Shown here piece by piece: positions 13,560 to 43,833 of a DNA stretch of 64,000 bases. Location of the stretch: the NCBI GenBank assembly GCA_964650645.1, contig CAZYUH010000001.1, forward strand, positions 411,032 through 475,031, read 5' to 3'. The DNA comes from an uncultured Candidatus Saccharibacteria bacterium (lineage in GTDB: Bacteria; Patescibacteriota; Minisyncoccia; Phycocordibacterales; SBAW01). Position 1 is the stretch's first letter. The number at the start of each line of letters is the position of its first letter. The position numbers were made by a program, and so were the translations under genes. The notes under the pieces are model-generated. The model made no database searches. It was not told the DNA's origin and saw only the letters and a list, made by a program, of their open reading frames with translations.

Positions 13560-13592
13560 CTCCCGTCAAATAATTGACGGGAGTTTTATTTT
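13560..13592 (+). terminator. rho-independent terminator
   Basis: ctcccgtcaa-ataa-ttgacgggag followed by ttttatttt. Confidence 0.7.
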
Positions 13593-13928
13593 GCTTAATG
13601 CGCAAAAAGCCTTATTTATAAACTCTTTTAGCCGAGATATCGGATAGGCTATACGAAAAATGCTTTTTAAATAAAGGAGTACTCGGTAATGCGATTTCAT
13701 GCTTTTTATCGGGTATGTCTTTTGAATGATTAGCGTCAATCGAAAGCGTGGCCGGTGCTAATTTTGGGCTTGATTGAGAGGGTGGCGCCGCGCTAACGCT
13801 GTTTTTATCCTTGCGCTTTTGCGGCTTATTTTCTTCACTTTTTTGACAGAAAAATAAAAAGCCCGGCTTAAAATTATTCATAACTCCGCACACGAACTTT
13901 CCGAGCAAACAAAAGATTTTTCGGCCCT

Positions 13929-28900: not shown

Positions 28901-31900
28901 CATTACGGCGACGGGCGAGACCCTGGCGCGCGGCATGTTCTACGTCGACGGCTCGTACGGCATCGGCCCGGGCGGCAACTCGTACTCGCGCGACACGTTC
29001 ATATCGCGCAGCGCGACCAGCACGCTCTTGGTGTCATCGGACATGGCAAGCGGCGCCGCGAACCTCATCGTGACGGGCAACATCGGCGTCGGCACCACCT
29101 CGCCGTACGCGAAGCTCTCGGTGACCGGAGACGCGGTGCTCTCCGGATCGAGCCCGACGCTGACCCTGCACGACACCGGCGGCAACTCGTTCAATACCAT
29201 CCAGAACGCGGGCGGCGGACTGCAATTCAATACCGGGTCGGGCAACAGCATCGTCTTCCAGCAGGCGGGCGTCGAGGCTGCGCGCTTCGTGACGGGCTCG
29301 CGCAATTTCGGCATCGGCACTTCCTCGCCGTCCCAGGCGCTCTCGGTCGCGGGCAACGGCTACGTTTCCGGCGGCTTCGGCATCGGCATGCCTCCGGCAG
29401 CGGCGGGCGGGCTGTACTTCAACCGCGCGGGCAACGACCCGTTCTTCTCGTGGTACGAAAGCGGGGTAAACGTCGGCCAGATACGCGCCGATGCGACCCG
29501 CGGCGGCATCTACTTCGCGGATACGACCGGCGGGACGACGTATTTCCAGGTAAACACCAGCGGAGCCGGGGCGGGCAACGTCGGCGTCGGCACCACCACG
29601 CCGGGCTCCTTGCTCGCCATAGGCAACACCGGCGGCATCAACTTCACGACCGCCACCTCGACCTTCAATACGACCGGCGGCATCAACATCAACTCGGGCT
29701 GCTTTGCCATGAACGGCACCTGCATTACCGCGGGCGGCGGAGGAGGCGTCTCGCTGAGCGCCGCCAATACGTGGACCGCGCTGCAGACCTTCCAGTCCGG
29801 CCTCCTCTCCCAGGCGTCCTCCACCTTCACCGGCGCGCTCACCCTCAGCGGCGGCATCGTCAATTACGCGGCCAACTCGACCTCGACCGTCCCGAACAAC
29901 GCGGCCTACGCGTGGACCATCGCCACCTCCTCGACCGCCCAGCCGCTCTTTGCTATAGACACCACCTCCGGCTCCGAAAGCGTCTCTTTGGGCGCGGCCG
30001 GCGCGGATGTCTACATCGGCGACGCCGGCTCCTCGCCTGATCTCGTGTTCGAGAACAGCGGCACGATAAAGACCGCGAGCGGCGGCACGCTCACGATCGG
30101 CGACGGCTCCGACATCGTCAACTTCGGCGTCAACGTCGGCATCGGCTCGACGACGCCCGGCTCGCTGCTTTCCGTCGGCGACACGAACGGCATCAACTTC
30201 ACGACCGCCACCTCGACCTTCTCCTCCACCGGCGGCATCAACATCGCTTCCGGCTGCTTCGCGGTCAACGGTACGTGCATCACCGGTGGGGGCGGCGGCA
30301 GCTCGGCGTCCTCCACATTGCTCGCTGACTTCAACACCTTCACCAACCTGCAGAGGTTTAACGGCGGCCTGCTCTCGCTCGCGTCCTCGACCATCGGCAA
30401 CGGCAATGCGGGCCTCACCATTTCCGGCAACTCGACCACCACGGGCAACTCGCTGGTCAGCGGCGGGCTCAACGTGGGCACGGTCCCGGTCGCGCCGGTC
30501 ACGGGCGGCATCTACCTCCAGCGCACGACCAATCCGTTCATCTCGTTCTACTACGGCTCGACGCAGGCGGGCCAGCTGCGCGCCAACTCGACGAGCCAGC
30601 TCTCGCTGACCGATCCTACCGGCAACAGCCCGTACCTCTCCATCAACACGTCCGGCGCGGCGGCGGGCAACGTCGGCGTCGGCACCACATCGCCGTTCGC
30701 CAACTTCGCGGTGCAGAAGAACTACGGCTCCACGAACACCACGCTGTTCGCCGTCAGCTCCTCGACCAACAGCGGCGGCACCACGGCGACCACGCTCTTC
30801 AGTGTCGACAGCTCCGGCGTCGCCACGGTGGGCAACGAGTCGGGCGCGGGCGACGCGAACTTCCAGTTCGCCTCCGACGCCAATGCCTGGTCGGTCGGCT
30901 ACAAGTCCTCCGACAAGTCGTTCAACATAGCGTCGTCCACCAACTTCTCGGGCACCGCGGCGCTCTCCATAGCCAAGAACGGCAACGCCACCTTCACGGG
31001 CTCGGGCGGCACCTGCACCATAAACGGCTCGGGCGAGTGCACTTCCGACATCCGCCTCAAGACGGACGTCGCGACGACGACCGGCCAGGACGCGCTCGCG
31101 AAGCTCGCGAAGCTCGACGCCATCACCTACACCTGGTCCGATCCGAAGCTCGACCAGGCGCAGCGCCTCGGCGTCGTCGCCCAGCAGGTGCAGGAGGTGT
31201 TCCCGCAGCTGGTGGGCTCGACGACCGTCAGCTTCATGGGCGTGACCGGCACCTACCTTACTGTCGACTACGGCGGCCTCGCGGCGCCGCTCATCGCCGC
31301 CGTCAACGAGCTCAACCTGCGCACGGGCTTCCTCGCGACGACGACCGCGACCTCCACTCCGGATGAGTTGGCGGACGGCCCGTTCAAGGCCGCGTCCGAT
31401 TGGCTGAAGTCGGCGCTCGCTTCGGGCCTCGACGCCATCCAGGGCGTCGCGGACATCGGCGTGCGCAACGTGGGCGCGGCGATCTACGCGGCGGCGGGCG
31501 CGTTCAACGAGGTGTTCGCGCAGACTATTACCGCCGACACGGTCAAGGCCAAGCAGTTGTGCCTCGAGGATGTCTGCATCACCAAGACTGAGCTCCAGAA
31601 CCTGCTCAACCAGCAGCACTCATCGGGCGGCGGGAGCGGCGGCAACGGCGGCGGGGGAGGGTCGGTGCCGCCGCCGGCGCCCGAACCTGCGGGCCCCGAG
31701 CCGGAGCCGCAGGCGTCGTCCACGCCGGAAACGGCGCCCGAGCCCGAGGCGCCGTCGCCTGGCGAGGCGTCTCCCGGGCCTGAGGCGCCTGCCCCCGAAC
31801 CGGACGCTCCCGCGCCTGAAGCGACTCCGGAGCCCGAACCGGAACCCGAGGATCCTGCTCCGCAGGATGCGCCCGCTCCCGCTCCGGCAAGCGCTCCGGC

Positions 31901-31934
31901 CGCAGGAGGGGAGGGCGGCGCGGTGCAGCCGTAA
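13929..31934 (+). CDS. giant (6001 aa) membrane-anchored fibrous surface protein built from phage tail-fibre-like repeats; contains LVIVD beta-propeller, glycine-rich block and C-terminal intramolecular-chaperone (peptidase S74-like) domain
   Basis: Single uninterrupted ORF; N-terminal HTH-like domain then TM (AAALLISMLLGGAAYASSAAF); about 17 modules beginning AYPFPSNATTT..FNGG; Phage_fiber_2-like motif GNASTATALQTPRTINGVTFDGTSNITVTAASSTLLANNNTFSGTNTF; C-terminal SDIRLKTDV..ITYTW..GVVAQQVQEVFPQLV; Pro/Glu tail. Confidence 0.9.
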   Translation: MTSSKKLFSKTGETLLNARKAAVLLECAPDYVSRLCREGKIEGVRHQGQWYIDPKSLESFRAGRDAARLARSEMLSAERRNESKAFARANGKAEGKPAQGIMSRIPAIPLSRHAAAALLISMLLGGAAYASSAAFSAARAQPEALSASAGRIESPFFSTVSFSFESVWRAIASLFAPSRDVAVAPSMQADRTLAAQPASPAAQPAVVAATTTQTFVTNTYPVVERTIERTVERAVPAQAADLGGFVTYDFLNAQIDGVYRSLSRRGSGGIADFSSLTAADIPALNYLPLTGGTLTGALSVSATSTLAGIALNADCSAYNNGGKLTTDSSGNVVCDNDTAGSGSGTPGGSTGQVQYNDAGDFGGEAGFTYDEGANRLTVSFASTTGITADYASTTNLVVSGVSNALLKTVNGVVVPAVAGTDYQAAGNYATFAYPFPSNATTTSIAFNGGLTGALTGNASTATALQTGRTINGVTFDGTQDITVTAASSTLLANNNTFSGNNTFSNTITGSITGNAGTVTNGVYTTTFGGLFAGQLAGTTTDALAEGSVNKYYTDSLVQSYLNGVDKGFFFSTTSAAYQLSVLDKGYFFSTTSAAYNLSTIDKGYFFSTTSADYLLSGKNYATFAYPFPSNATTTQLALNGGLTAPSATIAYASTTAITATTASTTNLVISGIATGSTQCLQINSSGTVSGTGSACGSGGGGSITQIGPAGQMQSGTSITLATSTSGSDFTITAAADTITFNFPIASASNTGKLTAADWSTFNDKISSTSLSAGAGIAYNPATGVITNTIGYPFPSNATTTSIAFNGGLTGTLTGSLVGNASTATALQTPRTINGVTFDGTSNITVTAASSTLLANNNTFSGTNTFSNTITGSITGNAGTVTNGVYTTTFNSLFDPRFASSFAGTTTDALAEGSTNLYYTQARATANFIANLAGTSSVASITTLPNLSLPSSQVTGLFAYPFPSNATTTQLAFNGGATFAGATTTALAVTGSTTVSSTLNVGGVINASGGVIGNVTGSLVGNASTATALETPRTINGVTFDGTQDITVAAASSTLLTDNNTFSGKTLLANATTTNLAVTGVTSSLLKTLSNGAVVAAVAGTDYVANTSGDWTGTFDGQEGSYYLNAANLANFGVPFYNFFSATTTSALAEGSNLYYTDERVDDRVGALLQAGSGVNLTYDDGSDTLTISATGGGGGGTDVNWTYFNGSTIRPATSTNQVLVGGTSTSTLVSPFAKLGVLGGASIDYASTTGITASYASTTDLVISGIPNGILKTVNGVVTAATAGVDYLTSGSSFAYPFPSNATTTQLAFNGGATFAGATTTALAVTGSTTVSSTLNVGGVINANGGVIGNVTGSLTGNASTATALQTPRTINGVTFDGTSNITVTAASSTLLANNNTFSGTNTFSNTITGSITGNAGTVTNGVYTTTFGGLFAGQLAGTTTDALAEGSANLYYTQARATANFIANLAGTSSVASITTLPNLSLPSSQVTGLFAYPFPSNATTTQLAFNGGLSATTITADAATSTSLFGGRVTGSTASFGATATSSFSSAGALTLANLSNAVLAVNAQGQVVATSSIGMSQLTGTLGVPNGGTGSTTLGGLLIGNGTGAIASAAVTGPLSFSGTTLSIAQATGAQSGYLSSADWSTFNGKVSSSSLSSANGYLTYNGSTGVFTASTSPTYAAATSTAFRTTSLTIGTLTGLLKASSGAVAAAVAGTDYENPLTFSYPLQRTVNAVSLAFGTTTSNTWAGTQTFTNAPRLGTLTGLVGANNGTLYQISTSTSFVTSLTAGAGISLSGATGAVTVTNAIGYPFPSNATTTQIAFNGGATFAGATTTALAVTGSTTVSGVLNAGGVVNANGGVTAAGASTIASTTLTGRTLLSNATSSSIYTPVLGVNGEYFTNLTGAGLQNVGGALTLDTAGDWTGTFDGQEGSYYLANSFSTTSAAYFSSLGLAFSTTSSDYWLSQKTTGNLAEGSNLYFTNARADARIAAATSTVRGMVSASGPLSYNSSTGIFSIFQAGAGQDGYLSSADWSAFNGKLSSSSIDTSTELASLIGDETGTGALVFGTGATLASTTLSGSTLLSNATTTNLAITGVTSSLLKTLANGAVVPAVAGSDYLTSATIYQYPFPNNATSTLIAFNGGITAAASTLSSTTLSGSTLLSNATTTSLGFSGLASTLLKTNAQGTVVAANAGTDYENPLTFSTGLSRIGDVVSNSGVTSATGTLNQISVSANTGNITFSLPSLVNLTNLTVAAATTTNSFTSGALSASTARFGSTATTTIDAAGNLAVAGTFDGAGLASCSGTADKLLWNAGVFSCGVDSGSGGGTSEINWTWFNGSAVRVSTSTNQVLIGTNATSTLAKLEVVGGVFTDNATSTASLFGGRITGNSAAFGTTASTTIDALGNVGIGSTTPSARLAVVGGNILQTASGDPKLVASSALGHRTYATAVSGRYAYVANETGGLRILDISNPAAPVVTGSFAYNGGSSAAISIAVAGQYAYVGDNAIGLVIIDVSNPAAPSVVSTSAIVNDPWNLALSGKYLYVADGNAKALKIIDVSNPAAPVVAGSFVSGGSTQPQAVAVAGKYAYMSDASLGNIYIVDISNPTAPALTATYASGGSPMSLYASGKYLYVADLVNGFYSLNVSNPNATPTLVGSYAGSHYGVAVAGQYAYIANDAGHELTVLDLANQSSPALVGGVDVGDEALGITMAGKYAFIAANLNGLAVVDVNGASFPAANIASLQSGMANIADALTVGGNIYAGGGLDVGVSGIYSRGTIAAYVASSTELNPVVATFMGGNVGIGTTSPFAKLSVGGSGFFGGSLTASSITASTSASLASTTLVGNTLLSNATTTSFAISGISGALLKTLANGAVVPAVAGTDYASPSDIFAYPFPSNATTTQLAFNGGLSATTITANAATSTSLFSGRVTGNTASFGATATSSFSSNGTLSLAGLSSALLSTDASGAVVATTTLSTNYLFGHLGFINGVAFSAGGSSIITAASSTLLANNNTFSGTNTFSNIITGSVSGNAGTATALQTPRTINGVTFDGTGNIVITAASSTLLANNNTFSGTNIFSNTINGSITGNAGTVTNGVYTTTFGGLFAGQLAGTTTDALAEGSANLYYTQARATANFIANLAGTSSVASITTLPNLSLPSSQVTGLFAYPFPSNATTTSIAFNGGLTGTLTGSLVGNASTATALQTPRTINGVTFDGTSNITVTAASSTLLANNNTFSGTNTFSNTINGSITGNAGTVTNGVYTTTFNSLFDPRFVTQLAATSSIASITTLPNLSLPYSQLTGTPAIAGYPFAGAGNSTSTLTQFNGGLTAYASSTIGNGTATGGLTVSGNATTTGNAYIAGNLTAAGTVAANGVSTAMIRDASSVSALDIANRRLLDSGTVNALDFSSASSIKLTQYTSNGFLKTSGGNGTLSVDTTISTSGGNVGIGTTSPYAKLSVAGQVVAASFVGTTTATSTLGGGMNIASGCYAVNGTCLSAASLGASTFAYPFPSNATTTQIAFNGGATFAGATTTALAVTGSTTVSSVLNVGGVINANGGITAGTYNASGASSTVLSLSGQALLSASSTTSSVFLGLNSGALNQSTGVYNSGLGAGALASNTTGTRNSAFGFATLVSNTSGAGNTAAGFQSMQSNTVGINNSAFGYNSLATNSYGVYNTAVGSHSLFANTSGVYNTASGYASLVFNSYGTFNSAFGSQALYNNGSGSYNSAFGYFAGKTNTVGTSTTLVGSFSDVAANNLSTSTAIGAGAVVSASNSLVLGGLGQSSVLAGVGTTTPFARFSIQANPTDSVPNAMLFAIGSSTASATTTLFSVSNTGSTTAQNGINIANGCYAVNGACLSAATFGASTFAYPFPSNATTTSIAFNGGLTGTLTGSLVGNASTATALQTPRTINGVTFDGTGNIVITAASSTLLANNNTFSGTNTFSNTISGSITGNAGTVTNGVYTTTFGGLFAGQLAGTTTDALAEGSANLYYTQARATANFIANLAGTSSVASITTLPNLSILSSQVSDLATTIGAAYPFALAGNATSTLTQFNGGLTAYASSTIGNGTAGLTVSGNSTTTGTAYFVGNVGIGTTSPFAALSVQGASSQAAATNAPVAFSVLGGTGSTTGLGGAIALTGGTGGNGVGGSGGGISLTGGNSGGGIASAGGTVALSAGNGGGATPGAGGALTISGGIASGNAGGIVISSGSANIAASNTSGGNITMIAGNGGGAGSVGAGGSFTFNSGSGNVGSASQAAGSFTFNGGSAGASKQGGSFAFNGGAGSTTGNGGDFSITGGTGGNSAGSRGGNITLNPGAAGTSGAVGNVLLATLNGNVGIGTTSPYAKLSVAGSVVAASFVGTTTATSTLGGGMDIATGCYAINGTCLSAASLGASTFAYPFPSNATSTSIAFSGGLTGTLTGSLVGNASTATALQTGRAINGVTFDGTSNITVTAASSTLLANDNTFSGTNTFSNTISGSITGNAGTVTNGVYTTTFNGLFDNRLSASSSIAGITTLPNLSLPASQVTGLAAYPFPSNATTTQIAFNGGLTAYASTTIGNGTAIGGLTISGGATTTGTAYFAGNVGIGTSSPYQALSVVGSTTLQANAAAAYSWTNASQPEGVTLRIGADGSSVAGLLIQGSNSGAGITDYLSVYNRFGTRLFGVTDSGVGIGGNTRLTVGPGFASGASLNPTGVNDYSIFGSSATSTPAQLIWDARRGTFYEDRTTPILRFAGNVGGGNSPIIGESVGGINILNASTTRGLSFASYASSTGQFIENFRILSTGNTGFGTSSPFAKLAVQAGDGDTATTLFAIGSSTASATTTLFSVSNTGSTTIQNGVNIAGGCYAVNGTCLSAATFGASTFAYPFLSNATSTTLTFSGGLLATASSTFSGQLNLGGTAANIALGSNYLSGDGGDEGVFVNSGGDVGIGTNGLISSHVLTVAGNQYLSGGLGVGGGNTVPGSAHIYGSAGDATSLTIDAPNASSASALNISGPSSGKAFAITATGETLARGMFYVDGSYGIGPGGNSYSRDTFISRSATSTLLVSSDMASGAANLIVTGNIGVGTTSPYAKLSVTGDAVLSGSSPTLTLHDTGGNSFNTIQNAGGGLQFNTGSGNSIVFQQAGVEAARFVTGSRNFGIGTSSPSQALSVAGNGYVSGGFGIGMPPAAAGGLYFNRAGNDPFFSWYESGVNVGQIRADATRGGIYFADTTGGTTYFQVNTSGAGAGNVGVGTTTPGSLLAIGNTGGINFTTATSTFNTTGGININSGCFAMNGTCITAGGGGGVSLSAANTWTALQTFQSGLLSQASSTFTGALTLSGGIVNYAANSTSTVPNNAAYAWTIATSSTAQPLFAIDTTSGSESVSLGAAGADVYIGDAGSSPDLVFENSGTIKTASGGTLTIGDGSDIVNFGVNVGIGSTTPGSLLSVGDTNGINFTTATSTFSSTGGINIASGCFAVNGTCITGGGGGSSASSTLLADFNTFTNLQRFNGGLLSLASSTIGNGNAGLTISGNSTTTGNSLVSGGLNVGTVPVAPVTGGIYLQRTTNPFISFYYGSTQAGQLRANSTSQLSLTDPTGNSPYLSINTSGAAAGNVGVGTTSPFANFAVQKNYGSTNTTLFAVSSSTNSGGTTATTLFSVDSSGVATVGNESGAGDANFQFASDANAWSVGYKSSDKSFNIASSTNFSGTAALSIAKNGNATFTGSGGTCTINGSGECTSDIRLKTDVATTTGQDALAKLAKLDAITYTWSDPKLDQAQRLGVVAQQVQEVFPQLVGSTTVSFMGVTGTYLTVDYGGLAAPLIAAVNELNLRTGFLATTTATSTPDELADGPFKAASDWLKSALASGLDAIQGVADIGVRNVGAAIYAAAGAFNEVFAQTITADTVKAKQLCLEDVCITKTELQNLLNQQHSSGGGSGGNGGGGGSVPPPAPEPAGPEPEPQASSTPETAPEPEAPSPGEASPGPEAPAPEPDAPAPEATPEPEPEPEDPAPQDAPAPAPASAPAAGGEGGAVQP
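21220..22150 (+). other. LVIVD-repeat beta-propeller segment inside the giant ORF
   Basis: Six to eight repeats such as YAYVANETGGLRILDISNPAAPVV, YAYVGDNAIGLVIIDVSNPAAPSV, YLYVADGNAKALKIIDVSNPAAPVV, YAFIAANLNGLAVVDVNGAS. Confidence 0.7.
26220..26900 (+). other. glycine-rich block (GGxGG-type, not collagen Gly-X-Y) inside the giant ORF
   Basis: GGAIALTGGTGGNGVGGSGGGISLTGGNSGGGIASAGGTVALSAGNGGGATPGAGGALTISGG... Confidence 0.8.
31010..31330 (+). other. intramolecular chaperone autoproteolytic domain (peptidase S74 / tail-spike C-terminal chaperone-like)
   Basis: TCTINGSGECTSDIRLKTDVATTTGQDALAKLAKLDAITYTWSDPKLDQAQRLGVVAQQVQEVFPQLVG..TVDYGGLAAPLIAAVNELN (S-D-x-R-L-K and IAQEV-like motifs). Confidence 0.7.
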
Positions 31935-31974: not shown

Positions 31975-33861
31975 ATGAAGCGGCATTCTTGTTTCAATGC
32001 GGGTACGCGCCTGGGCACTCGGCACGGCATAAAAAGAATCCTCCCGCTGTTCGGTGTTGCGGCATTTTTTGCCGTGTTCCTTGTGGCGCCCCACTCGGCG
32101 CAAGCAGCGCTTTCCTATGTCGGCTCCGCAGAAGGGAGCGGCATAAATACTACGGTTAATGTGAGCCTCACAGGTCTTTCTTTGCAACAGGGCGATCTGG
32201 TAATCGTCTTGAACGGATGGGGGGAGACCTCGAACGGTGATCCTGGCGTGGGTACGTCTGGATATACCGAGGTGGCTGATCTGTATGCGAATGATTCTGT
32301 TGATGCCAACCTTTCCGTCAGCTGGAAGATCATGGGTGCGTCGCCCGATTCGTCCGTGTCCTGCAACTCAAACGGCACGACATTCGGCGCATCGGCGTGC
32401 CTGGTGCACGTATGGCGCGGGGCGGACGCGACAGTGCCCATGGATGTGACTCCCACTACGGCTACAGGTGTCGACTCGGCCGTCTTCGACAGCCCTTCCA
32501 TTACGCCGGTAACTGCGGGAGCGGTCGTGCTTACGCTCGGCTTGAGCACCGCCACGGGCGCCAGCGGGGACTCGTCGATAACCGCTCCGTCGGGGTATTC
32601 CAATCAGGCCGATATAAATGCAAACGGAAACACGAGGTCATCCCAATCCGGCATCGCATCCAAGGCGTGGAGCGGCTCAGGTGCCGAGAACCCGGGCGCG
32701 TGGAGCAATATAACCACTGACACATTCAATTCCTGGGCTGCTGTTACGCTCGCTATACGCCCCGCTGCCGGACCGGGAGGGGGCGGGACCATATTCCTCA
32801 CGTCGGGCACGACGTGGCAGGTGCCTTCCGATTGGGATTCTTCTAATAACACCATAGAGGTTATAGGCGGCGGGGGAGGCGGAGATACCCCGAGCGACAC
32901 GGTCTATTCCGCGGGCGGCGGCGGCGGCGCATACTCGAAAATCACGAACGCGACGCTTACGCCCGGCGCGACAGTCGCCATTGCTGTGGGTGCCGGCGGG
33001 TCGGGCGGTACTACTCCGACTGCCGGCGGCGACACGTACCTGTGCAACTCGCCCAGCAACTGCGCGACCATTGGCGGCAGCGCGGTCATCGTCGGCGCGA
33101 AAGGCGGCGGCGCGCCTACCGGGTCCGGGTTCCCGACCGGCGGTGCCGGGGGTGCTGCGGCCAGCGGAGTGGGGACGGTCAAGAACTCGGGCGGCGCAGG
33201 CGGCACGTCTTCGTTAGGCAACCCGGGCTCCGGCGGCGGCGGCGCAGGCGGGCCGCGGGGCGCGGGCGGCGCGGGTGCGGATGACGCCAATACCACGGGC
33301 TCCGGAGGCGGCGGCGGCGGCGGCGCGGGCGGCGGCGGGTCCGGAACGAATGGCGCGGCCGGTACGGCTGCCGCAAATAGCTTAGGCGGCGCAGGCGGCG
33401 CAGGCGGCAACAATGCCGCGGGAGCGGGCTCCGGCGGCGCCGGTACGGCTAGCGGAGGAACGGGATCTGCGGGTACGGCCGGAGGAGGCGGCGGAGGAGG
33501 CGGCGGAAAAAACGGAACGAATGCCGGAGCCGGAGGCGCCGGAGGCGCTGGTACGGACTGGGACGCGACGCATGGTGCGGGCGGCGGAGGCGGAGGAGGC
33601 GGAGGCAGCAACGACGCTACCGTCAATGGTTCGGCGACCGGCGGCGCCGGCGGCCTGTACGGCGGCGGAGGAGGCGGAGGCGGCGGAACGTCCGCAGGCA
33701 ACGGCACCAACGGCGCGGGCGGCAACGGCGCGCAGGGGATCATCGTCATCACCTACACGGCAGCAGGAGGCGGGTCCGGCACGCCCTCGCGCCGCATGCG
33801 GCTCTTCGAAGGATTCAAAATAAAGCTCATTAGCGGCAAGATAAAAGTGCTCCCGATATGA
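31975..33861 (+). CDS. secreted glycine-rich protein (TSGTxW..IEVIGGGGGG / GIIVITYT family)
   Basis: Signal peptide ..FFAVFLVAPHSAQA; module IFLTSGTTWQVPSDWDSSNNTIEVIGGGGGGD..GGDTYLCNSPSNCATIGGSAVIVGAKGGG..long GGxGG tracts..GIIVITYT. Confidence 0.8.
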   Translation: MKRHSCFNAGTRLGTRHGIKRILPLFGVAAFFAVFLVAPHSAQAALSYVGSAEGSGINTTVNVSLTGLSLQQGDLVIVLNGWGETSNGDPGVGTSGYTEVADLYANDSVDANLSVSWKIMGASPDSSVSCNSNGTTFGASACLVHVWRGADATVPMDVTPTTATGVDSAVFDSPSITPVTAGAVVLTLGLSTATGASGDSSITAPSGYSNQADINANGNTRSSQSGIASKAWSGSGAENPGAWSNITTDTFNSWAAVTLAIRPAAGPGGGGTIFLTSGTTWQVPSDWDSSNNTIEVIGGGGGGDTPSDTVYSAGGGGGAYSKITNATLTPGATVAIAVGAGGSGGTTPTAGGDTYLCNSPSNCATIGGSAVIVGAKGGGAPTGSGFPTGGAGGAAASGVGTVKNSGGAGGTSSLGNPGSGGGGAGGPRGAGGAGADDANTTGSGGGGGGGAGGGGSGTNGAAGTAAANSLGGAGGAGGNNAAGAGSGGAGTASGGTGSAGTAGGGGGGGGGKNGTNAGAGGAGGAGTDWDATHGAGGGGGGGGGSNDATVNGSATGGAGGLYGGGGGGGGGTSAGNGTNGAGGNGAQGIIVITYTAAGGGSGTPSRRMRLFEGFKIKLISGKIKVLPI

Positions 33862-34454
33862 GCAGGGGCGCATGGATAGCCGCTTCGTGCGTTGCCCTGT
33901 GTATCGCGGCGGCGGCATGGGCGTTCTTTGGCGCGCCGGGAGCGCCGCGCATTTTTTTACCGGGCGGCGCAGGCGGCGAACCGGCGCCCGGCTTTGCAAT
34001 GGCAAGCGGGACAGACGCAAGCGCCGGGCCGCTCAAGCCGCCGCGCACGCCGCCGGCGGGACAGAAGGAGCTGTACAATGAAAAATATCGGTTCTCGCTC
34101 TTTTATCCGGACACCCTTTCCTTAAAAGCCTACGACGAAGGGGGCGGGGCGTCGACTATCGCGCTCCAGAGCGTCGCGCGCGCGGAAGGATTCCAAATAT
34201 TCGTCGTGCCCTACCGGGGCGCGCAAGTGAGCATGGAGCGGTTCAGGCGCGACGTGCCGTCAGGGGTCATGCGGGAGCCTCTTGATACAACCATAGACGG
34301 CGCGACGGCGACGAGCTTCTACAGCGCCAACGCCGCGCTGGGCGACACGGCCGAGATATGGTTCATTCATGGCGGCTACCTGTTCGAGGTGACCGCGCCC
34401 AAATCGCAGGCGGCATGGCTCTCGGATATCATGAAAACCTGGCAGTTCATATAA
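33858..34454 (+). CDS. small membrane-anchored partner protein, type A (..WQFI C-terminus)
   Basis: ATGA start/stop overlap with upstream gene; N-terminal TM AWIAASCVALCIAAAAWAFF; paralog of 36548 (FYPDTLSLKAYDE.. / IAYPEQLKVTQYEE..; both end W(Q/K)FI). Confidence 0.65.
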   Translation: MSRGAWIAASCVALCIAAAAWAFFGAPGAPRIFLPGGAGGEPAPGFAMASGTDASAGPLKPPRTPPAGQKELYNEKYRFSLFYPDTLSLKAYDEGGGASTIALQSVARAEGFQIFVVPYRGAQVSMERFRRDVPSGVMREPLDTTIDGATATSFYSANAALGDTAEIWFIHGGYLFEVTAPKSQAAWLSDIMKTWQFI

Positions 34455-34469
34455 GGCGGGGCGCGATGA

Positions 34470-34475
34470 TATAAT
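34470..34475 (+). promoter_or_regulatory. TATAAT -10 box 8 nt upstream of ATG
   Basis: gatgaTATAATcggcgttaATG. Confidence 0.45.
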
Positions 34476-34483
34476 CGGCGTTA

Positions 34484-36547
34484 ATGAGGTGGGGCAATGG
34501 CTACATAGGCGCGTTCGTCGCCGCGTGCGCGTGCGCATTCCTCCTGCCTGCCTGTGCGCATGCGGCGACGGTGTTCCTCACGTCGGGCACGTCGTGGAGC
34601 GTGCCGTCCGATTGGGACTCGGCGAGCAACACCATTGAAGTCATAGGCGGCGGCGGGGCGGGAGAAGATATAAACGGCGGAGGCGGCGGAGGAGGCGGCT
34701 ATACCAAGGCAACGAACGTGACGCTGACTCCCGGCTCGACGGTCGCGTATGCTGTCGGCGCGGGCGGGCTCACCAGCAGCGCGAGCGGCGGCGATACGTA
34801 CCTATGCAACAGCACCTCAAACTGCGCCGATATTAACGGCACGGCGGTCGTTGCGGGCGCCCGGGGCGGCGCGGGGTCTGCCGGAACCGGCGGCGGCGCG
34901 GGTGGCGCGCTGGGCGTGCCTGTATCGGGCACGGTGCGCTACGCGGGCGGCGCCGGCGGCGACGGGAATACCGACGGCGAGACCGGCGGCGGAGGAGGCG
35001 GCGCGGGCGGCCCTTTCGGCGGCGGCGCTAATGGCGGCGGCGGCGCGGGCGGCACCGATGACGGAGGCGGAGGCGGAGGCGGCGCCGGCGGCGGCACGAA
35101 CGGCGCCGCCGGAACCGGCCATAGCGGCACGGGCGGCAACGGCGGCGACAACCACAACGGCGCCGGCGGCGGCACGGGCGGCAACAGCGCGTCCGGCGGC
35201 ACGGACGGAGGCGGCGGAGGCGGCAGTTGCCGGTTCGGCGCGGACGGCGGCGGCGGCACCGAGTGGGACGCGACGCACGGCTCGGGCGGCGGCGGAGGCG
35301 GCGGAGGCTACGTCACCGACTGCAGCGGCACCAACAGCTCGGGCGGCGCCGGCGGCCTGTACGGCGGAGGAGGCGGAGGCGGCGGCGAGAATACGGCGAC
35401 CGACAACGGCGGCGCGGGCGCGCAGGGCATTATCGTCATAACGTACACGCCGGCCAGCGCTCCCGTTGGCCGCATCGTGCGCCTGAAGGGCGGCGTGCGG
35501 TTGGTAGGCGGCGTGCGGTTCGGCGGCACCTCGCCCGTCACGACGTACGGCGGGGGCGGAAGTCCGTCGTGCGATGCGGCATTTACCGATATTGGCGGCG
35601 GGCAGTGCCGTCTGTTCGTGACGTCGCTCGCGGCGACCACCTTCAGCGTGCCTCCCAACTGGACCTCGACGAATACCATAGAAACTATCGGCGGCGGCGG
35701 CGGAGGCTCGAACTACCCGACGGGCGGCGGAGGCGGCGCGTATAGCGCGTCCACCAACGTTTCGTTGACGCCGGGCGCGACGGTCGGCCTCAAGGTCGGC
35801 GGAGGCGGCGCGGGCGGGCCTACCGGCGGCTCGTTTACCGCAGGGGGTGCTGGCGGCGACACGTACGTATGCAACTCGACCAGCAACTGCGCGAGCATTG
35901 CGGGCAGCGCGGTCATCGTAGGCGCCAAGGGCGGCGGGGGCGGCGCGACGACCGCCGTCCTGACAAGCGGCGGCGCGTCTGGGAGCGGCGTGGGCGCAAC
36001 CAAGGTAAGCGGCGGCAACTCCCCGGCGCCATCGACCAACGGCTCCGGCGGCGGCGGCGCAGGTGGGCCGCAGGGCGCTGGCGCTGCGGGCGGGCAAAGC
36101 ACTGGCAACGGCGGCGCGGGCGGAGGCGGCAACGGCGGCGGCAGCGCGGGCGCAGGCACGGGTTCTGATAATGGAGGCAACGGAGGCAATAATTTCGGCG
36201 GCACCGGCAGCGGCGCGGGCGGCGTCGCATCGGGCGCTGTGGGCAGTCCGGGCGCCGCAGGTACGAACGGCGGCGGAGGCGGCGGAGGAAGCCGACCTTT
36301 TTCAGACAATAACATCGTCGGCGGCGCCGGAGGCAATGGCACCGAGTGGGACGCGACGCACGGGTCGGGCGGCGGCGGAGGCGGCGCCGGCGGCACGAAC
36401 GCCGCTGGTGTTACGGGCATTTTCGGCGGCGCCGGGGGGCTCTACGGAGGCGGTGGCGGCGCCGGCGGCTACAACACATCCGACGGCATAGGCTTCAAGG
36501 GCGGCGACGGCGGGCAGGGGATTATCGTCATAACCTACACGCTCTAA
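34484..36547 (+). CDS. secreted glycine-rich protein carrying two tandem copies of the TSGTxW..GIIVITYT module
   Basis: Signal peptide ..LLPACAHA; VFLTSGTSWSVPSDWDSASNTIEVIGGGGAG..GAQGIIVITYTP then LFVTSLAATTFSVPPNWTSTNTIETIGGGGGGS..GGQGIIVITYTL. Confidence 0.8.
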   Translation: MRWGNGYIGAFVAACACAFLLPACAHAATVFLTSGTSWSVPSDWDSASNTIEVIGGGGAGEDINGGGGGGGGYTKATNVTLTPGSTVAYAVGAGGLTSSASGGDTYLCNSTSNCADINGTAVVAGARGGAGSAGTGGGAGGALGVPVSGTVRYAGGAGGDGNTDGETGGGGGGAGGPFGGGANGGGGAGGTDDGGGGGGGAGGGTNGAAGTGHSGTGGNGGDNHNGAGGGTGGNSASGGTDGGGGGGSCRFGADGGGGTEWDATHGSGGGGGGGGYVTDCSGTNSSGGAGGLYGGGGGGGGENTATDNGGAGAQGIIVITYTPASAPVGRIVRLKGGVRLVGGVRFGGTSPVTTYGGGGSPSCDAAFTDIGGGQCRLFVTSLAATTFSVPPNWTSTNTIETIGGGGGGSNYPTGGGGGAYSASTNVSLTPGATVGLKVGGGGAGGPTGGSFTAGGAGGDTYVCNSTSNCASIAGSAVIVGAKGGGGGATTAVLTSGGASGSGVGATKVSGGNSPAPSTNGSGGGGAGGPQGAGAAGGQSTGNGGAGGGGNGGGSAGAGTGSDNGGNGGNNFGGTGSGAGGVASGAVGSPGAAGTNGGGGGGGSRPFSDNNIVGGAGGNGTEWDATHGSGGGGGGAGGTNAAGVTGIFGGAGGLYGGGGGAGGYNTSDGIGFKGGDGGQGIIVITYTL

Positions 36548-37114
36548 ATGGCCGCCAAGATCACCGCTTCAATAGCCCTGCTTGCCGCTATCGCGCTCGG
36601 CGGGTACTTCCTTTGGCGCGGCGGCGGCCAGGACGCGGACGCTGCCGCCGCTTCGGCCCGCTTGGCCGTGCCGGACGCGCTTTCCGTAAGCACGCCCGAA
36701 ACCCGCGCTTTGCCCGGCGGCATGCGGCTGTACGAAAGCAAGGCGTTCAAATTTTCCATAGCGTATCCCGAACAGCTGAAGGTGACGCAGTACGAGGAGC
36801 GCGGCAGCGCCATGACGGTTACGTTCGAGAACCCGGACCGCACGCAGGAGTTCGAGGTGTACGTCACGCCCTACGCCAAGGCGCAGATAGACGACGCGCG
36901 CTTCAAGCTCGACCAGCCGTCGGGCCGGTTCCTCGATCCGCAGGACGTGATGGTGGACGGCGCGCGAGCGACGCTCTTTACCGGGTACAACACGATTATG
37001 GGCGACACGCGCGAGGTCTGGTTCATAAAAGACGGCTTTTTATACGAAGTGATGACCTACAAGCCGCTCGACGCGTGGCTGGGGCAGATGATGCAGGGCT
37101 GGAAGTTCATCTAG
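36548..37114 (+). CDS. small membrane-anchored partner protein, type A
   Basis: TAAATG junction with upstream gene; TM ITASIALLAAIALGGYFLW; paralog of 33858. Confidence 0.7.
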   Translation: MAAKITASIALLAAIALGGYFLWRGGGQDADAAAASARLAVPDALSVSTPETRALPGGMRLYESKAFKFSIAYPEQLKVTQYEERGSAMTVTFENPDRTQEFEVYVTPYAKAQIDDARFKLDQPSGRFLDPQDVMVDGARATLFTGYNTIMGDTREVWFIKDGFLYEVMTYKPLDAWLGQMMQGWKFI

Positions 37115-37128
37115 TATCTAGCCCACCC

Positions 37129-37150
37129 GAGCAAGGTTCAACCTTGCTCA
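37129..37150. repeat. REP palindrome copy 1 (centre base C on + strand)
   Basis: gagcaaggttCaaccttgctca; overlaps the RAYT stop codon (the TGA stop is formed by the palindrome centre on the - strand). Confidence 0.85.
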
Positions 37151-37872
37151 CTGCTTTGCGTTTGCATAGGCGGTACACCCTTGCTTTCCTTAAAATCGAG
37201 CCAGTCGTTTATGCTGTTTTCAAAACTCGAGCGCGCGTCGAAATAAGCAGGCAGGCTCTCCTTGTTTAGGATATTCTTTTCTATCCTGTCCCGGCCTGCG
37301 TAGTCAGGGTAGCTTGACGCATCATACGACTGCAGAAATAAGCGGGCGCGTTCCTTGTCGCGGATTCCGGATTCTTTCCATTTCGGCTCGATAAGCTTTA
37401 TGGGATTAAGATGCAGATAAGATACGAGGTATTTTAAATAGCGGTCCTCGTTAGCGTGCTGTGATTTGAACCTTCCTTGGAATAATGCTCCCGAGCGCGC
37501 ATAACGCTTGTTGAAATACATGGTGTACGCCGTAGTGAGCTTTTGCATGAAGCGGCTCGTTCCGCCGCCCTCCCTTTCTTTTAGCAGGAGATGGAAGTGG
37601 TTTGGCATGAGCACGTATGCGCATATGTCGACAAGAGGGGCGCCTCGTTCGCACGCGATAGCTTTTTCGAGCAAGGTTGAACCTTGCTCGCTCCGGCGCA
37701 AATTTTCCATATGAACCGGCGCGATTCCGTTGCAAATATAGAGCAGGGCAACGAATCGTTCGTAATCGGCCTTGCCTTTAAAGACAGTCCTTTTATCCGT
37801 ACCGCGATTGTAAAGATGGTAATATTCTCCCGGCGCAAAAATCATGTTCCGTGACATGGCAGGATAGTACAC
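37138..37872 (-). CDS. REP-associated tyrosine transposase (RAYT / TnpA_REP, HUH Y1 family)
   Basis: HUH motif YVLMPNHFHLLL; catalytic-Tyr motif YLVSYLHLNPIKL; 244 aa; flanking REP hairpins. Confidence 0.85.
   Translation of the reverse strand: MYYPAMSRNMIFAPGEYYHLYNRGTDKRTVFKGKADYERFVALLYICNGIAPVHMENLRRSEQGSTLLEKAIACERGAPLVDICAYVLMPNHFHLLLKEREGGGTSRFMQKLTTAYTMYFNKRYARSGALFQGRFKSQHANEDRYLKYLVSYLHLNPIKLIEPKWKESGIRDKERARLFLQSYDASSYPDYAGRDRIEKNILNKESLPAYFDARSSFENSINDWLDFKESKGVPPMQTQSSEQG
37669..37689. repeat. REP palindrome copy 2, inside the RAYT CDS (encodes EQGSTLL)
   Basis: gagcaaggttGaaccttgctc. Confidence 0.85.
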
Positions 37873-37885
37873 TTTTTGCCCACAT

Positions 37886-37906
37886 GAGCAAGGTTGAACC
37901 TTGCTC
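37886..37906. repeat. REP palindrome copy 3 (centre base G on + strand), between RAYT and gap
   Basis: gagcaaggttGaaccttgctc. Confidence 0.85.
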
Positions 37907-38002
37907 GCGGGGGGGGGTGGGGCGCGATGCGGTGAGGTGGTCGCTATGCGCTGCGGCGTATGGGCAAACGCATAGCCAAACGCATGGGCAAGCGCAGGGT
38001 AT

Positions 38003-38008
38003 ATACTG
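38003..38008 (+). promoter_or_regulatory. -10-like box (GGTATATACT) 7 nt upstream of gap ATG
   Basis: cagggtatatactgtgtacatATG. Confidence 0.4.
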
Positions 38009-38015
38009 TGTACAT

Positions 38016-39044
38016 ATGGCTATACGAGTCGCGATAAACGGGTTCGGACGCATCGGCCGCTGCTTCTTGCGCGCCGCGTGGAACGACCCGCAGGTAGAAG
38101 TGGTGGCGATTAACGATTTAGGCTCATTGGACACGCTTGCGTACCTTTTAACGTACGACAGCGTCTACCGGCGCTTCCCGGGCCAGGTGTCTGTCCAGAA
38201 CGGCGAACTGGTCGTGGGCGCCAAGCATATAAAGGTGGTAAGCGAAAAAGATCCGGCGAAATTGCCGTGGAAGGACCTTAATATCGACGTTGTGGTGGAG
38301 TCCACCGGCTTCTTCACCGATTTTGCAAAGGCAAAGGCGCACCTGACCGCGGGGGCCAAGCGCGTCGTCATATCGGCGCCCGCAAAGGACGGCGCCGACG
38401 AGGCTGGGGTGCCGGTCACGGGCGTCACCGTGCTCATGGGGCTCAACCAGGACAAGCTTGCGAACGTGCAGCTTTCTTCCAATGCTTCATGCACGACCAA
38501 TGCCGCCTCGCCGCTCATCGCGATACTCGACGCGGCGCTCGGCATAGACAAGGCGCTTCTTAATACCACGCACGGCTATACCGCCAGCCAGTCGCTCGTC
38601 GACGGGCCCTCGAAGAAGGATTTAAAAGAGGGGCGCGCCGCCGCGCAGAACATCGTGCCGACCTCGACGGGCGCGGCCATAGCGGTGACGCAGGCGTACC
38701 CGCAGCTGGCAGGGAAATTCGACGGCATTTCCCTGCGCGTGCCGGTGCCGGCGGGCTCTATCGCCGACGTCACGTTCATCGCCAAGCGCGACACGACCGC
38801 CGAGGAGGTCAACAAGCTCCTTATGGATGCGGCATGCTCGCCGCAGTGGCACGGGATATTCGGCGTCACGAAGGACCCGATAGTATCGAGCGACGTCATC
38901 GGCTCGACCTACGGCTCCATAGCAGACCTCAACATGACGCGCGTGATAGGCAACCTGGTAAAGGTGCTCGCGTGGTACGACAACGAGATGGGGTACACCC
39001 ATACGCTGCTGCGGCATGTGAAGCTGGCGGGCGGGCATATATAA
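38016..39044 (+). CDS. gap: glyceraldehyde-3-phosphate dehydrogenase
   Basis: MAIRVAINGFGRIGRCFLRAAW..; catalytic SNASCTTN; the GTG-extended ORF from 37851 runs through the REP and is rejected. Confidence 0.95.
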   Translation: MAIRVAINGFGRIGRCFLRAAWNDPQVEVVAINDLGSLDTLAYLLTYDSVYRRFPGQVSVQNGELVVGAKHIKVVSEKDPAKLPWKDLNIDVVVESTGFFTDFAKAKAHLTAGAKRVVISAPAKDGADEAGVPVTGVTVLMGLNQDKLANVQLSSNASCTTNAASPLIAILDAALGIDKALLNTTHGYTASQSLVDGPSKKDLKEGRAAAQNIVPTSTGAAIAVTQAYPQLAGKFDGISLRVPVPAGSIADVTFIAKRDTTAEEVNKLLMDAACSPQWHGIFGVTKDPIVSSDVIGSTYGSIADLNMTRVIGNLVKVLAWYDNEMGYTHTLLRHVKLAGGHI

Positions 39045-42903: not shown

Positions 42904-43058
42904 CTACATCGGGTTCGCGTTCGTGGGGGCCTTTTCCTGCCTCATAGGAATGGTGGTAGTCCGCGCCATAAACGCGCTCCCGCAGGGCATCCCGCCGGGG
43001 AGCTTTTAAGCCCCTGGCGCAATACTGGCAGGTAAAGAGGCGTCGTCGCCCATAAATA

Positions 43059-43075
43059 TCAAGGTTCAACCTTGA
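43059..43075. repeat. degenerate REP-like palindrome (C form)
   Basis: tcaaggttCaaccttga. Confidence 0.6.
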
Positions 43076-43155
43076 TGACGAGATAGTTGACTTTTTATAT
43101 ATTAGGGTGTATAATAGGATACAGGAAGTAAGAATTGTATAGAGAGGAGACTGGC

Positions 43156-43728
43156 ATGAGAATGCTGCTTTTGTGCGCCGCCCTGTGGGCGCTCATCGCT
43201 CCGGCGCACGCCATGGACAAGCGACTGGTCGGCTGCCTCGCGCACGCGATTTACGGCGAGGCGCGTAGCGAGCCTATCAAAGAACAGCTTGCCGTCGGGT
43301 GGTCTATCAGGTTCCGCGCGGCAGCCGACCTGCCCGGGTATGGGGGCAGCGACCTGTGCGATGTGGTCTATAAAGTGACGCACTCAAGGCGTACTTACAA
43401 GACTACGTGGCAGTACGACGGCGCCCATGTCAGGCTTTCCGAAAGGATTGCCTTGCAACGCTCGCTGCGCGTGGCCAAAATGGTCCTTTCGGGACAGGGT
43501 CGGCCACCGCTGCCGGTCGTGAGCTTTTGCGACCCGCGCAGCCATTGGAAGGATGGCAGGGATGCGTGCTGGGGGCATGACCATAGTGGGGATCTCCGTC
43601 AGGTACACATAGGCACGGGGGGTCACCATAAGCATTACGTCAACAGGCAGTTCATGACCATACGCGAGCTCGCGGCCTGGTCGGCAGCCAAGGCGGCAGC
43701 CCGGTCCAGGTTGGCATCTAGCCGGTAA
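43156..43728 (+). CDS. secreted SleB-family cell-wall hydrolase (Hydrolase_2-like)
   Basis: Signal peptide MRMLLLCAALWALIAPAHA; LAHAIYGEARSEPIKEQLAVGWSIRFRAAA resembles the SleB/CwlJ domain; RBS-like gagaggag upstream; TTG-extended ORF from 43135 rejected. Confidence 0.7.
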   Translation: MRMLLLCAALWALIAPAHAMDKRLVGCLAHAIYGEARSEPIKEQLAVGWSIRFRAAADLPGYGGSDLCDVVYKVTHSRRTYKTTWQYDGAHVRLSERIALQRSLRVAKMVLSGQGRPPLPVVSFCDPRSHWKDGRDACWGHDHSGDLRQVHIGTGGHHKHYVNRQFMTIRELAAWSAAKAAARSRLASSR

Positions 43729-43752
43729 CGGACGGGTGCGAGTACAAAAAAA

Positions 43753-43788
43753 GCGCCCGCGGATTAATATCCGCGGGCGTATTCTTTT
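43753..43788 (+). terminator. rho-independent terminator
   Basis: gcgcccgcgga-ttaata-tccgcgggcg followed by tattctttt. Confidence 0.65.
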
Positions 43789-43812
43789 GGACATATTGAG
43801 CAAGGTTGTATT

Positions 43813-43833
43813 GAGCAAGGTTGAACCTCGCTC
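43813..43833. repeat. REP palindrome copy (G form, one mismatch) preceded by a half copy at 43798-43808
   Basis: gagcaaggttGaacctcgctc; upstream ttgagcaaggttg. Confidence 0.75.

Follow-up and report, generated by a model that had tools for sequence, protein, structure and literature searches.

A Patescibacteria RAYT-like transposase cassette with flanking hairpins and a third, coding copy of the hairpin

Repetitive extragenic palindromes (REPs) and REP-associated tyrosine transposases (RAYTs) have mostly been studied in Proteobacteria, where the matching of enzyme and hairpin is still an open question. In insertion sequences (IS) of the IS200/IS605 type the hairpins at the two ends are imperfect and unlike each other, terminal inverted repeats are absent, and TnpA has about 130-150 amino acids (aa). 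HUH replication initiators such as phiX174 gene A and pT181 repC carry the nick site in their own gene, as phage or plasmid origins with a single defined nick. Here we describe a 64-kb stretch of DNA (the window) in which the gene of a RAYT-like Y1/HUH transposase is accompanied by three perfect copies of a 21-nt palindrome, one upstream of the gene, one at its stop codon, and one read in frame within it.

A hallmark of RAYTs is a flanking repeat that is highly abundant genome-wide (Bertels 2017, PMC5581495, Analysis 4), and RAYTs are single-copy, vertically inherited and housekeeping-like (PMC5581495). PMC3733652 describes REPs with a conserved GTAG or CGTC tag at one end, and the REP singlets of P. 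fluorescens SBW25 are long perfect palindromes (PMC3337134). E. coli rayT has REPs flanking the gene and none in the coding sequence. Rickettsia palindromic elements (RPEs), of ~150 bp, lie in frame in unrelated coding genes and add a peptide to the product (PMC10969869). The literature that we found on RAYTs and on REP doublets forming hairpins (REPINs) describes flanking repeats and long palindromic singlets, and we found in it no in-gene copy and no system from the candidate phyla radiation (CPR) (PMC3337134, PMC5581495); searches on REP/RAYT in CPR/Patescibacteria, on REPs within a RAYT gene and on the core sequence strings of the hairpins described below returned nothing relevant from the library searched.

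What is new here is a conserved three-hairpin architecture in which the hairpin serves as probable promoter element, coding segment and stop codon. Also new are a coding copy whose pairing is maintained through compensatory substitutions of amino acids and which follows the flank copies in sequence, and in-frame copies in CPR housekeeping genes. The interpretation that we favour, with moderate confidence, is that the window holds a recently arrived cassette of ~0.8-0.9 kb in which a Patescibacteria-specific RAYT-like Y1/HUH enzyme is combined with three hairpins, all of them live substrates of one hairpin-processing activity.

The hairpin cassette and its enzyme

A pattern search with GAGCAAGGTTSAACCTTGCTC located the perfect 21-nt palindrome GAGCAAGGTT[C/G]AACCTTGCTC at 37129-37149, 37669-37689 and 37886-37906 of the 64-kb window, and no copy is expected by chance (100 dinucleotide shuffles). 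Folding of the single DNA strand gives each perfect copy a 9-10-bp stem closed by a 3-nt loop, with energies from -9.2 to -11.4 kcal/mol (z = -5.3 to -6.2). A fourth match, with one mismatch, lies at 43813-43833, just behind the half copy GAGCAAGGTTG at 43798-43808, and the compensated variant ATCAAGGTTCAACCTTGAT is a perfect 19-nt palindrome at 43058-43076. A preliminary description of this DNA had counted five copies in the window; that number is roughly right, but only three of them are perfect, the others being one near-perfect copy and one half copy or variant. On three further points it agrees with what we find: the palindromes bracket the gene at the coordinates given there, the centre of the copy at 37129 supplies the TGA stop, and the copy at 37669-37689 is read through as EQGSTLL, residues 62-68 of a 244-aa open reading frame (ORF). 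The features of the locus are as follows, with the strand where the feature has one.

37115-37990: inserted cassette, approximate extent; DNA missing from the orthologous site (ORF188 directly followed by GAPDH) in related genomes
37122-37150: left arm of a 29-nt terminal inverted repeat; the hairpin and an outer C-rich extension CCCACCC, 93% complementary to 37885-37913
37129-37149: downstream (3') hairpin, perfect 21-nt palindrome; its centre triplet on the minus strand is the TGA stop, 37138-37140
37138-37857, minus strand: RAYT-like Y1/HUH transposase gene, giving 239 aa when read from the ATG at 37857; HUH codons at 37591-37599 (NHFHLL), YLHLNP at 37402-37419
37669-37689: internal hairpin, palindromic without mismatch over 21 nt; a flanking C/G pair lengthens it to 23 nt (37668-37690)
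37864-37869, minus strand: putative -10 box TACTAT, suggested by the family geometry
37885-37913: right arm of the 29-nt terminal inverted repeat; the hairpin and an outer G-rich extension
37886-37906: upstream (5') hairpin, perfect 21-nt palindrome; ends 28 nt before the ATG

The longest transposase ORF occupies 37138..37872 of the minus strand (244 aa from the GTG at 37872) and ends in ...SSEQG-TGA; homologues begin with MSRN..., which makes the ATG at 37857 (239 aa) the probable true start. The protein passes the gathering threshold of Pfam Y1_Tnp (PF01797; 32.9 bits vs a cut-off of 23, E = 8e-8). Its single NCBIfam match is REP_Tyr_transpos (NF047646, equivalog) at 45.9 bits, below the cut-off of 80 for a RAYT, and the IS200-type transposase model of NCBIfam gave no match at E <= 0.1. 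The sole sequence match in the PDB, to E. coli TnpA_REP (4ER8), is weak (E = 0.16). In the fold search, the AlphaFold2 (AF2) model of the transposase, built from 113 homologues with a predicted local distance difference test score (pLDDT) of 85.8, has 4ER8 as its best Foldseek match (E = 2e-5, template modelling (TM) score 0.69 normalised to the target). The TnpA proteins of IS608 and ISDra2 rank below it (~2e-3 vs 2e-5), and so does the IS200 transposase, all four matches having probability 1.00.

The catalytic residues are invariant in an alignment of 21 sequences (H92, H94, Y152, H154, N156 and P157 in the 244-aa numbering) and among 113 sequences (H87/H89 and Y147/H149/N151/P152 in the numbering of the 239-aa protein), which argues for a nuclease activity that is probably retained. 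Both the HUH motif NHFHLL and the catalytic-tyrosine motif, here YLHLNP, that had been recognised at the outset are present, and the comparison with TnpA_REP and IS200 enzymes that had been proposed as a check comes out on the RAYT side, in view of the Y1_Tnp match, the sole NCBIfam match and the best structural match. Within the Y1/HUH superfamily the transposase belongs on the RAYT side, but it falls outside NCBI's RAYT equivalog.

More than 4,400 proteins of this family were retrieved by a word-indexed search, and an exhaustive search of 50%-identity clusters gave 355 at E <= 1e-30 and 6,562 at E <= 1e-10. Where the source is named it is Parcubacteria, Paceibacterota, Minisyncoccota or Patescibacteria; the family is large and Patescibacteria-specific. 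The closest named relatives of the GatB protein of the window's host (70-72% identical) are labelled Patescibacteria/Paceibacterota, and the host is, judging from its sequence, a high-GC member of these ultra-small CPR bacteria, in agreement with the original suggestion of a high-GC lineage outside the Proteobacteria.

The comparison set comprised 80 metagenomic loci encoding relatives, together with loci found via the 21-mer; these carry L-numbers, and hairpins in them were sought independently of the window sequence. Flank hairpins were counted at the 79 loci with a complete gene if they were perfect, of the ...AGG-N-CCT... type and with a stem of at least 7 bp. Such a core-type hairpin is present within 150 nt upstream of the gene in 67 of the 79 loci and at or just past the gene end in 69; at ~85% of the 79 loci there are matching hairpins on either side of the gene. 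Among 243 distinct hairpins the core C-A-A-G-G-y-y-N-r-r-C-C-T-T-G (CAAGG-N5-CCTTG) is nearly universal, while the outer stem varies by lineage (for example CCCATAGG... in L059 and TACGGAGG... in L048) and the whole palindrome measures 15-47 nt. The same 243 hairpins have no conserved tag of the GTAG/CGTC type beside them and no conserved position beyond the palindrome. Six loci (L034, L043, L045, L046, L079 and L084) have inverted doublets as flank copies, the two members making up one larger hairpin; the preliminary description had proposed to look for inverted pairs resembling bacterial interspersed mosaic elements. A point that it missed is that the layout with three hairpins is not special to the window gene but conserved in a large family.

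Several other features of the family loci were recorded. A C-rich tract (CCCCAC-like on the coding strand) is found directly outside the upstream hairpin of several unrelated cassettes (window 37907-37925, L089 1510-1531, L010 1-200). In L010 an array of hairpin copies precedes the gene, formed by alternation of this tract with the copies. L001 has extra upstream copies, and the idea that the segment between them duplicates the 5' part of the gene was rejected, as no such duplication was found. L059 carries tandem paralogous transposase genes (904-1596 and 2587-3249), with the internal hairpins CCCATAGGGGTACCCTATG and CCCATAGGTTCAACCTATGGG at the same position in each.

The internal hairpin and its co-variation with the flanks

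An in-frame internal hairpin is present in 39 of 78 related genes, always at aa 53-61 and with its centre base at codon position 2 in 39/39; other hairpins of equal strength number only 17 anywhere in the 78 genes. Changes on both sides of the stem, i.e., compensatory ones, occur at 7 of 10 pairs and account for 86 cells of the alignment, compared with at most 13 cells when the partner is slid by 1-3 columns. Across 38 distinct internal copies 92.9% of the cells are paired, a percentage inflated by the choice of sequences that have the stem, which leaves the variety of pair types unaffected. The pairing extends across codons: a glycine codon GGT pairs with the threonine codon ACC, and the glycine codons GGA, GGC and GGG are matched by TCC (Ser), GCC (Ala) and CCC (Pro), respectively. 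From lineage to lineage the peptide encoded by the hairpin changes wholesale (EQGSTLL, PIGSTYG, YGGLTSV, REGLTFT, IQGLSLD, NQGGALM), and the coding palindrome reaches 27-33 nt in L059, L050 and L075.

In the AF2 model the internal peptide belongs to the least confident stretch of the core (residues 51-60, pLDDT 67), located between a helix (29-41) and a strand (76-83), and in distant family members the loop that contains it is hypervariable in both length and sequence. Compensatory pairing across codons, together with the wholesale change of the peptide, shows that the internal copy is constrained as nucleic acid and not as protein.

The remaining genes do not merely lack a 7-aa insertion. This possibility was rejected since the loops have the same length with and without a perfect hairpin (36.3 vs 35.3 aa), and many genes contain decayed versions of the hairpin. 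Examples are RQGSTLK, EQGKFLR and NQGDSLV, at loci where the flank copies remain perfect. The internal copies of L042 and L043 have decayed, whereas L064 and L067, with the same genomic context, retain theirs, and on a rough tree the genes with an internal copy have a patchy distribution. No pair of sequences had discordant N-terminal and C-terminal identity, the trace expected of recombination at this hairpin.

The flank copies change in concert with the internal one. A flank copy differs from the internal copy of its own locus by 1.2 mismatches on average and from the internal copies of other loci by 7.5; own-locus flank copies were found with a limit of 3 mismatches, and an independent hairpin search yields the same sequences. 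Between the related loci L075 and L051, a change from T-A to C-G has affected the inner pair of the upstream, internal and downstream copies alike. One and the same exact 21-mer accompanies proteins only 49% (L001) and 77% (L089) identical to that of the window, and the genomes concerned have GC values of 0.42-0.46, 0.54 and 0.65. Beyond the shared 21-23 nt, palindromy has been extended independently in each copy (L050, L075), up to 33-47 nt.

The orientation of the copies follows no rule. Relative to the internal copy, the upstream copy has the same orientation at 15 loci and is inverted at 21, and the downstream copy has the same orientation at 21 and is inverted at 11, so that the earlier proposal of an element oriented by its centre base does not hold. 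The centre base matters only because TGA or TAA as the middle codon would stop translation. Wobble mismatches within the stems are balanced as well, with 13 G.T and 9 A.C and no strand bias, and these counts do not discriminate between a symmetric site and a hairpin formed by RNA or by one DNA strand.

Perfect palindromes with no G.T vs A.C strand asymmetry could also be double-stranded operators for a dimeric DNA-binding protein, possibly the present protein with its transposase activity lost, with the internal copy as an intragenic operator. Co-variation of half-sites is likewise expected for a dimer that changes its specificity, and the upstream copy lies over the -35 position. We nevertheless regard operators as distinctly improbable. 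The HUH and tyrosine catalytic residues are invariant, hairpins are scattered at unrelated intergenic and coding positions, and the nearest solved relative, 4ER8, was crystallised with a REP hairpin according to its entry title, not with duplex DNA. Furthermore, each copy lengthens its own palindromy (to 33-47 nt), which a hairpin or template-switch process fits better than an operator of fixed length.

Putative promoter, stop codon and insertion of the cassette

Between the upstream hairpin and the ATG, 47 of 65 distinct upstream regions contain a TATAAT-like hexamer (5 or 6 positions matching). Most commonly this hexamer ends 6-7 nt from the ATG (23/47) and starts 27-28 nt from the hairpin centre (16/47), a spacing that puts the TTGnnn of the right hairpin arm at the canonical -35 distance, and loci of the L029 group have TTGACA in that arm. 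The window has the commonest family geometry (27 nt; 6 nt), with TTGCTC (37886-37891, the last six coding-strand bases of the hairpin), 16 nt, TACTAT, 6 nt and the ATG. A strict scan of the window locus for sigma-70 promoters and terminators found nothing, and for the window the promoter is deduced from the family geometry alone. The upstream hairpin thus appears to supply the -35 element of a promoter, probably for a leaderless or near-leaderless mRNA, and autorepression by protein bound at this hairpin is a possibility.

At the other end of the gene, the downstream copy often overlaps the stop codon, in several registers (offsets -9, -10, -16, -18...). TAG is the first triplet of the downstream hairpin in L023, L025 and L027, and in 13 genes a hairpin lies within the last ten codons.

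In front of the neighbouring GAPDH gene, a TATACT box lies a few bases from the ATG and no ribosome-binding site is obvious (window 37990-38016), and the same arrangement is seen in relatives that lack the cassette (L092 2521-2559, L093 5571-5608, L095 5574-5613). Leaderless mRNAs may be common in the lineage of the window.

With the promoter placed in this way, the internal and downstream copies would be transcribed, and their stable stems could act in the mRNA, i.e., on translation, decay or termination, instead of in DNA; REP hairpins are reported to stabilise mRNA 3' ends (PMC3733652). We consider this highly improbable. The upstream copy precedes the putative transcription start, yet has the same sequence and co-varies with the others, the hairpins are randomly oriented, there is no sense-strand excess of G.U-compatible mismatches, and no Rfam family matches; an Rfam scan of the window returned nothing but a tRNA.

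The window cassette is a recent insertion and compositionally foreign. The transposase gene has a GC content at third codon positions (GC3) of 0.57, compared with 0.82-0.88 for host genes. Three related genomes with the same gene order have an empty site (L092, with ORF188 83% identical; L093/L094; L095), where the ORF188-GAPDH spacer is 38-40 nt long; the window has ~875 extra bases. Homology with the empty sites resumes near GGTATATACTGTGTACATATG, with boundaries that are blurred since the genomes are only ~80% identical. The junctions are not clean at the hairpins, and ~85 extra bases lie outside the upstream hairpin in comparison with the empty sites. These bases include the C-rich tract that is also found in L089 and L010 and arrived with the cassette. 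In L090 (Logan ERR3697023) the same locus is 98% identical and the cassette is present.

Insertion polymorphism of this kind raises the question of an autonomous IS of the IS200/IS605 type, in which the flank hairpins would be the left and right ends of a transposing 0.8-kb unit and the solo hairpins its footprints or miniature derivatives. The foreign composition and the 29-nt terminal inverted repeat fit such an element. In L089 (protein 77% identical) the similarity to the window is confined to the unit between the two hairpins and the neighbour genes are different. A -35 element in the left end and a stop codon in the right end, as they would lie here, are typical of IS architecture. Against this stand the absence of a match to the NCBIfam IS200 model and of a second transposase gene copy in the 64-kb window, the ~85 bases outside the upstream hairpin at junctions that are not clean, and the synteny of most related loci at 76-90% DNA identity. 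The known IS200/IS605 ends are moreover imperfect, dissimilar and without terminal inverted repeats, and TnpA is shorter than the present protein. On balance we judge an autonomous IS unlikely.

A strain-level rearrangement at a hairpin was seen in the contigs L025 (5661-5690) and L027 (3985-4010), which are 99.7% identical and part 4 nt past the downstream hairpin; beyond the breakpoint, L027 has a different hairpin, GCGGCAAGGTTTAACCTTGCCGC, 30 nt further on.

The surroundings of the cassette are unusual in other ways. Extremely glycine-rich ORFs with GGC-rich repeats occupy 33200-36550 and 47100-47950 of the window (e.g. 34484-36547, 687 aa, GC 0.73), and the same gene stands ahead of ORF188 in L093 and L095. 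A single ORF of 6001 aa with many internal repeats (families D3-D9 and D14-D16) spans 13929-31934 and probably encodes a giant surface protein; the lowest GC of the window (0.505) is at 13001-14000, just before this ORF, and includes the intergenic segment 13500-13930.

Dispersed hairpins and comparison with known systems

Around the homologues, core-type hairpins more than 150 nt away from the genes number 66 in 370 kb, or 0.18 per kb. Only 30% of the dispersed hairpins lie in open frames of at least 150 aa, compared with 80% of random positions; dispersed hairpins are therefore mainly extragenic. The window contains 2-3 copies away from the gene, at two intergenic sites near 43.1 and 43.8 kb.

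43058-43076: variant solo hairpin ATCAAGGTTCAACCTTGAT; same core, other outer stem with a compensated change; intergenic
43796-43833: solo copy away from the gene; the half copy (43798-43808), then the full copy with one mismatch (43813-43833); convergent intergenic, after a terminator-like hairpin

The 21 nt at 43057-43077 are identical to the internal copy of the homologue L011 (3419-3439), which hints that a second cassette, of another hairpin type, is or was present in this genome. A 197-aa ORF (43135-43728; no Pfam match; GC3 0.73 vs ~0.85 for host genes) is located between the two sites, and the unit 43058-43833 may be a second hairpin-bounded insertion.

The exact 21-mer is globally rare, with 8 stretches in 4 of 185,579 species genomes. 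One Kaiserbacteria metagenome-assembled genome (MAG) has 6 exact sites and 1 near-exact site, 3 of the 6 at its transposase gene; these counts are minima, since MAGs tend to break at repeats, and they fall short of showing a REP-like abundance for this sequence. In L003 (1076-1096) the exact 21-mer is extended to a 29-nt palindrome, ATAGGAGCAAGG...CCTTGCTCCTAT, on a contig of 2.6 kb from a goat-caecum MAG that carries the label Bacillota. Chance (~0.3 exact matches are expected in the whole collection), mis-binning or transfer could account for this occurrence.

Three exact copies are read in frame in linker regions of other genes: in a RecJ gene as EQGSTLLT (L005 81-101), in a UvrC gene as LSKVQPCS, in the linker joining its GIY-YIG domain to the UVR domain (L007 6819-6839), and in the gene of an HhH-GPD glycosylase as RARFNLAQ, just before the helix-hairpin-helix (L008 217-237). 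All three are DNA-repair genes; they belong to other CPR genomes, and none is in the window. A sister hairpin is read in frame in RsmA (L030 oriented 2349-2381), where it falls in a linker whose counterpart in B. subtilis KsgA is variable, and further hairpins occur in large surface proteins. The 21-mer can be read without a stop in 5 of the 6 frames and orientations.

These observations allow a bolder proposal, to which we give limited credence. The in-frame hairpin would be a conserved cis-acting site by which the transposase recognises its own gene and limits or directs its action there, the DNA being both code and substrate. CPR hairpin repeats would have evolved readability in nearly every frame, colonising coding sequence where intergenic space is scarce and reshaping surface loops of housekeeping proteins.

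The distribution of the copies also bears on whether the locus is a classical domesticated REP/RAYT system, with a single-copy, vertically inherited RAYT that keeps a large genome-wide REP/REPIN population and with the copies at the gene as its nearest members. Sequence and fold are RAYT-like, hairpins flank the gene, REPIN-like inverted doublets occur at the six loci named above, many homologous loci are syntenic, and the dispersed hairpins are mostly extragenic at 0.18 per kb. We assign such a system a low probability. The window copy departs from single-copy, vertical inheritance, being an insertion with empty sites in relatives and foreign codon composition (GC3), while other family members are syntenic; its NCBIfam RAYT score of 45.9 is under the cut-off of 80, and the hairpins have no GTAG/CGTC tag beside them. 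These results do not support a domesticated, vertically inherited RAYT. The copies counted are few as well, with 2-3 away from the transposase gene in the 64-kb window and, in the MAG sampled best, 6 exact sites, and since E. coli rayT has no REP in its coding sequence, the internal copy is outside the classical picture.

We return to a recently arrived cassette whose three hairpins are live substrates of one activity. The presumed recognition element of the enzyme would be a perfect hairpin with the family-wide core and a lineage-specific outer stem. Its upstream copy overlaps the -35 region of the putative promoter, where bound enzyme would shut the gene off; the downstream copy overlaps the stop codon, and the third is read in frame within a surface loop of the enzyme that is hypervariable. 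Like hairpins are scattered as single and double copies, mostly intergenic and sometimes in frame in other genes. The activity itself could be cleavage and rejoining by the enzyme or hairpin-templated repair, and by working on all three copies it would account for their joint change between lineages and for internal pairing kept at the expense of the amino acids. For the internal copy the most likely beginning is the insertion of a hairpin in frame into a tolerant loop, which is the simplest origin because in-frame copies are present in other genes and most frames are readable. Observed directly are the fold, the anatomy of the locus and its conservation in the family, the insertion polymorphism, and the covariation and concerted change of the copies. 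Binding and cleavage of the hairpins by the transposase, the promoter with its autoregulation, and the route by which the copies are homogenised are what we infer from these patterns; a benefit of the internal copy, such as self-limitation or action in cis, is hypothetical.

Besides the inflated percentage of pairing, four points weigh against this interpretation. About half of the lineages have a decayed internal copy next to perfect flank copies, so that the internal one is non-essential and dispensable. The balanced mismatches and the covariation are explained equally well by a symmetric double-stranded site for a dimer. The promoter hexamers of the window, TTGCTC and TACTAT, are weak and fail the strict scan. 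Finally, many related loci share their neighbours at 76-90% DNA identity, so that the cassette is usually stable and not an IS that jumps frequently.

The Patescibacteria family provides a natural experiment, with three hairpins at fixed positions in about half of the genes and one of them under coding constraint; owing to these fixed positions, the sequences themselves reveal how enzyme and hairpin co-evolve. In the internal copy, DNA pairing cleanly overrides protein sequence, be it by selection or by a mutational process. To judge from the in-frame copies in genes for DNA repair and rRNA modification, small palindromic repeats appear to remodel CPR proteins, by analogy with RPEs in Rickettsia. 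A short defined hairpin and a small enzyme also make assays of binding, cleavage and strand transfer straightforward.

Compared with described systems, the enzyme shares with RAYT/TnpA_REP (E. coli RayT, 4ER8) the Y1/HUH fold and the YxxxNP catalytic tyrosine motif, the presumed recognition hairpins that flank the gene, and dispersed hairpins that are mostly intergenic and in part inverted doublets; the long perfect palindromes resemble the REP singlets of SBW25 (PMC3337134). It differs from RAYTs in its length of ~225-240 aa, with a helical C-terminal extension of ~80 aa, vs 165 aa, in a score below the RAYT cut-off, in perfect odd-length palindromes without the GTAG/CGTC tag, and in the recent insertion of the window copy and the low copy number in the sequence sampled. 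Unlike in E. coli rayT, a third copy is in frame inside the gene, and the hairpin supplies the stop codon and, it appears, the -35 element.

The cassette has in common with IS200/IS605 elements (IS200, IS608, ISDra2) the Y1/HUH fold, a small hairpin-bounded unit with a single gene, and insertion polymorphism, but its ends are identical perfect palindromes that form a terminal inverted repeat, its catalytic motif is of the RAYT type, and there is one copy in 64 kb. Like RPEs, the hairpins are found in frame in genes, i.e., in recJ, uvrC, the HhH-GPD glycosylase gene, rsmA and the transposase gene itself; unlike RPEs, they measure 15-47 nt vs ~100-150 bp, and they are tied to the gene of a specific Y1 enzyme, with which they co-vary. 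As in phiX174 gene A and pT181 repC, the gene of the enzyme contains the hairpin or nick site on which that enzyme acts or presumably acts, so that the DNA would be both code and substrate; the present system is set apart from them by three equivalent copies in a transposase-type cassette.

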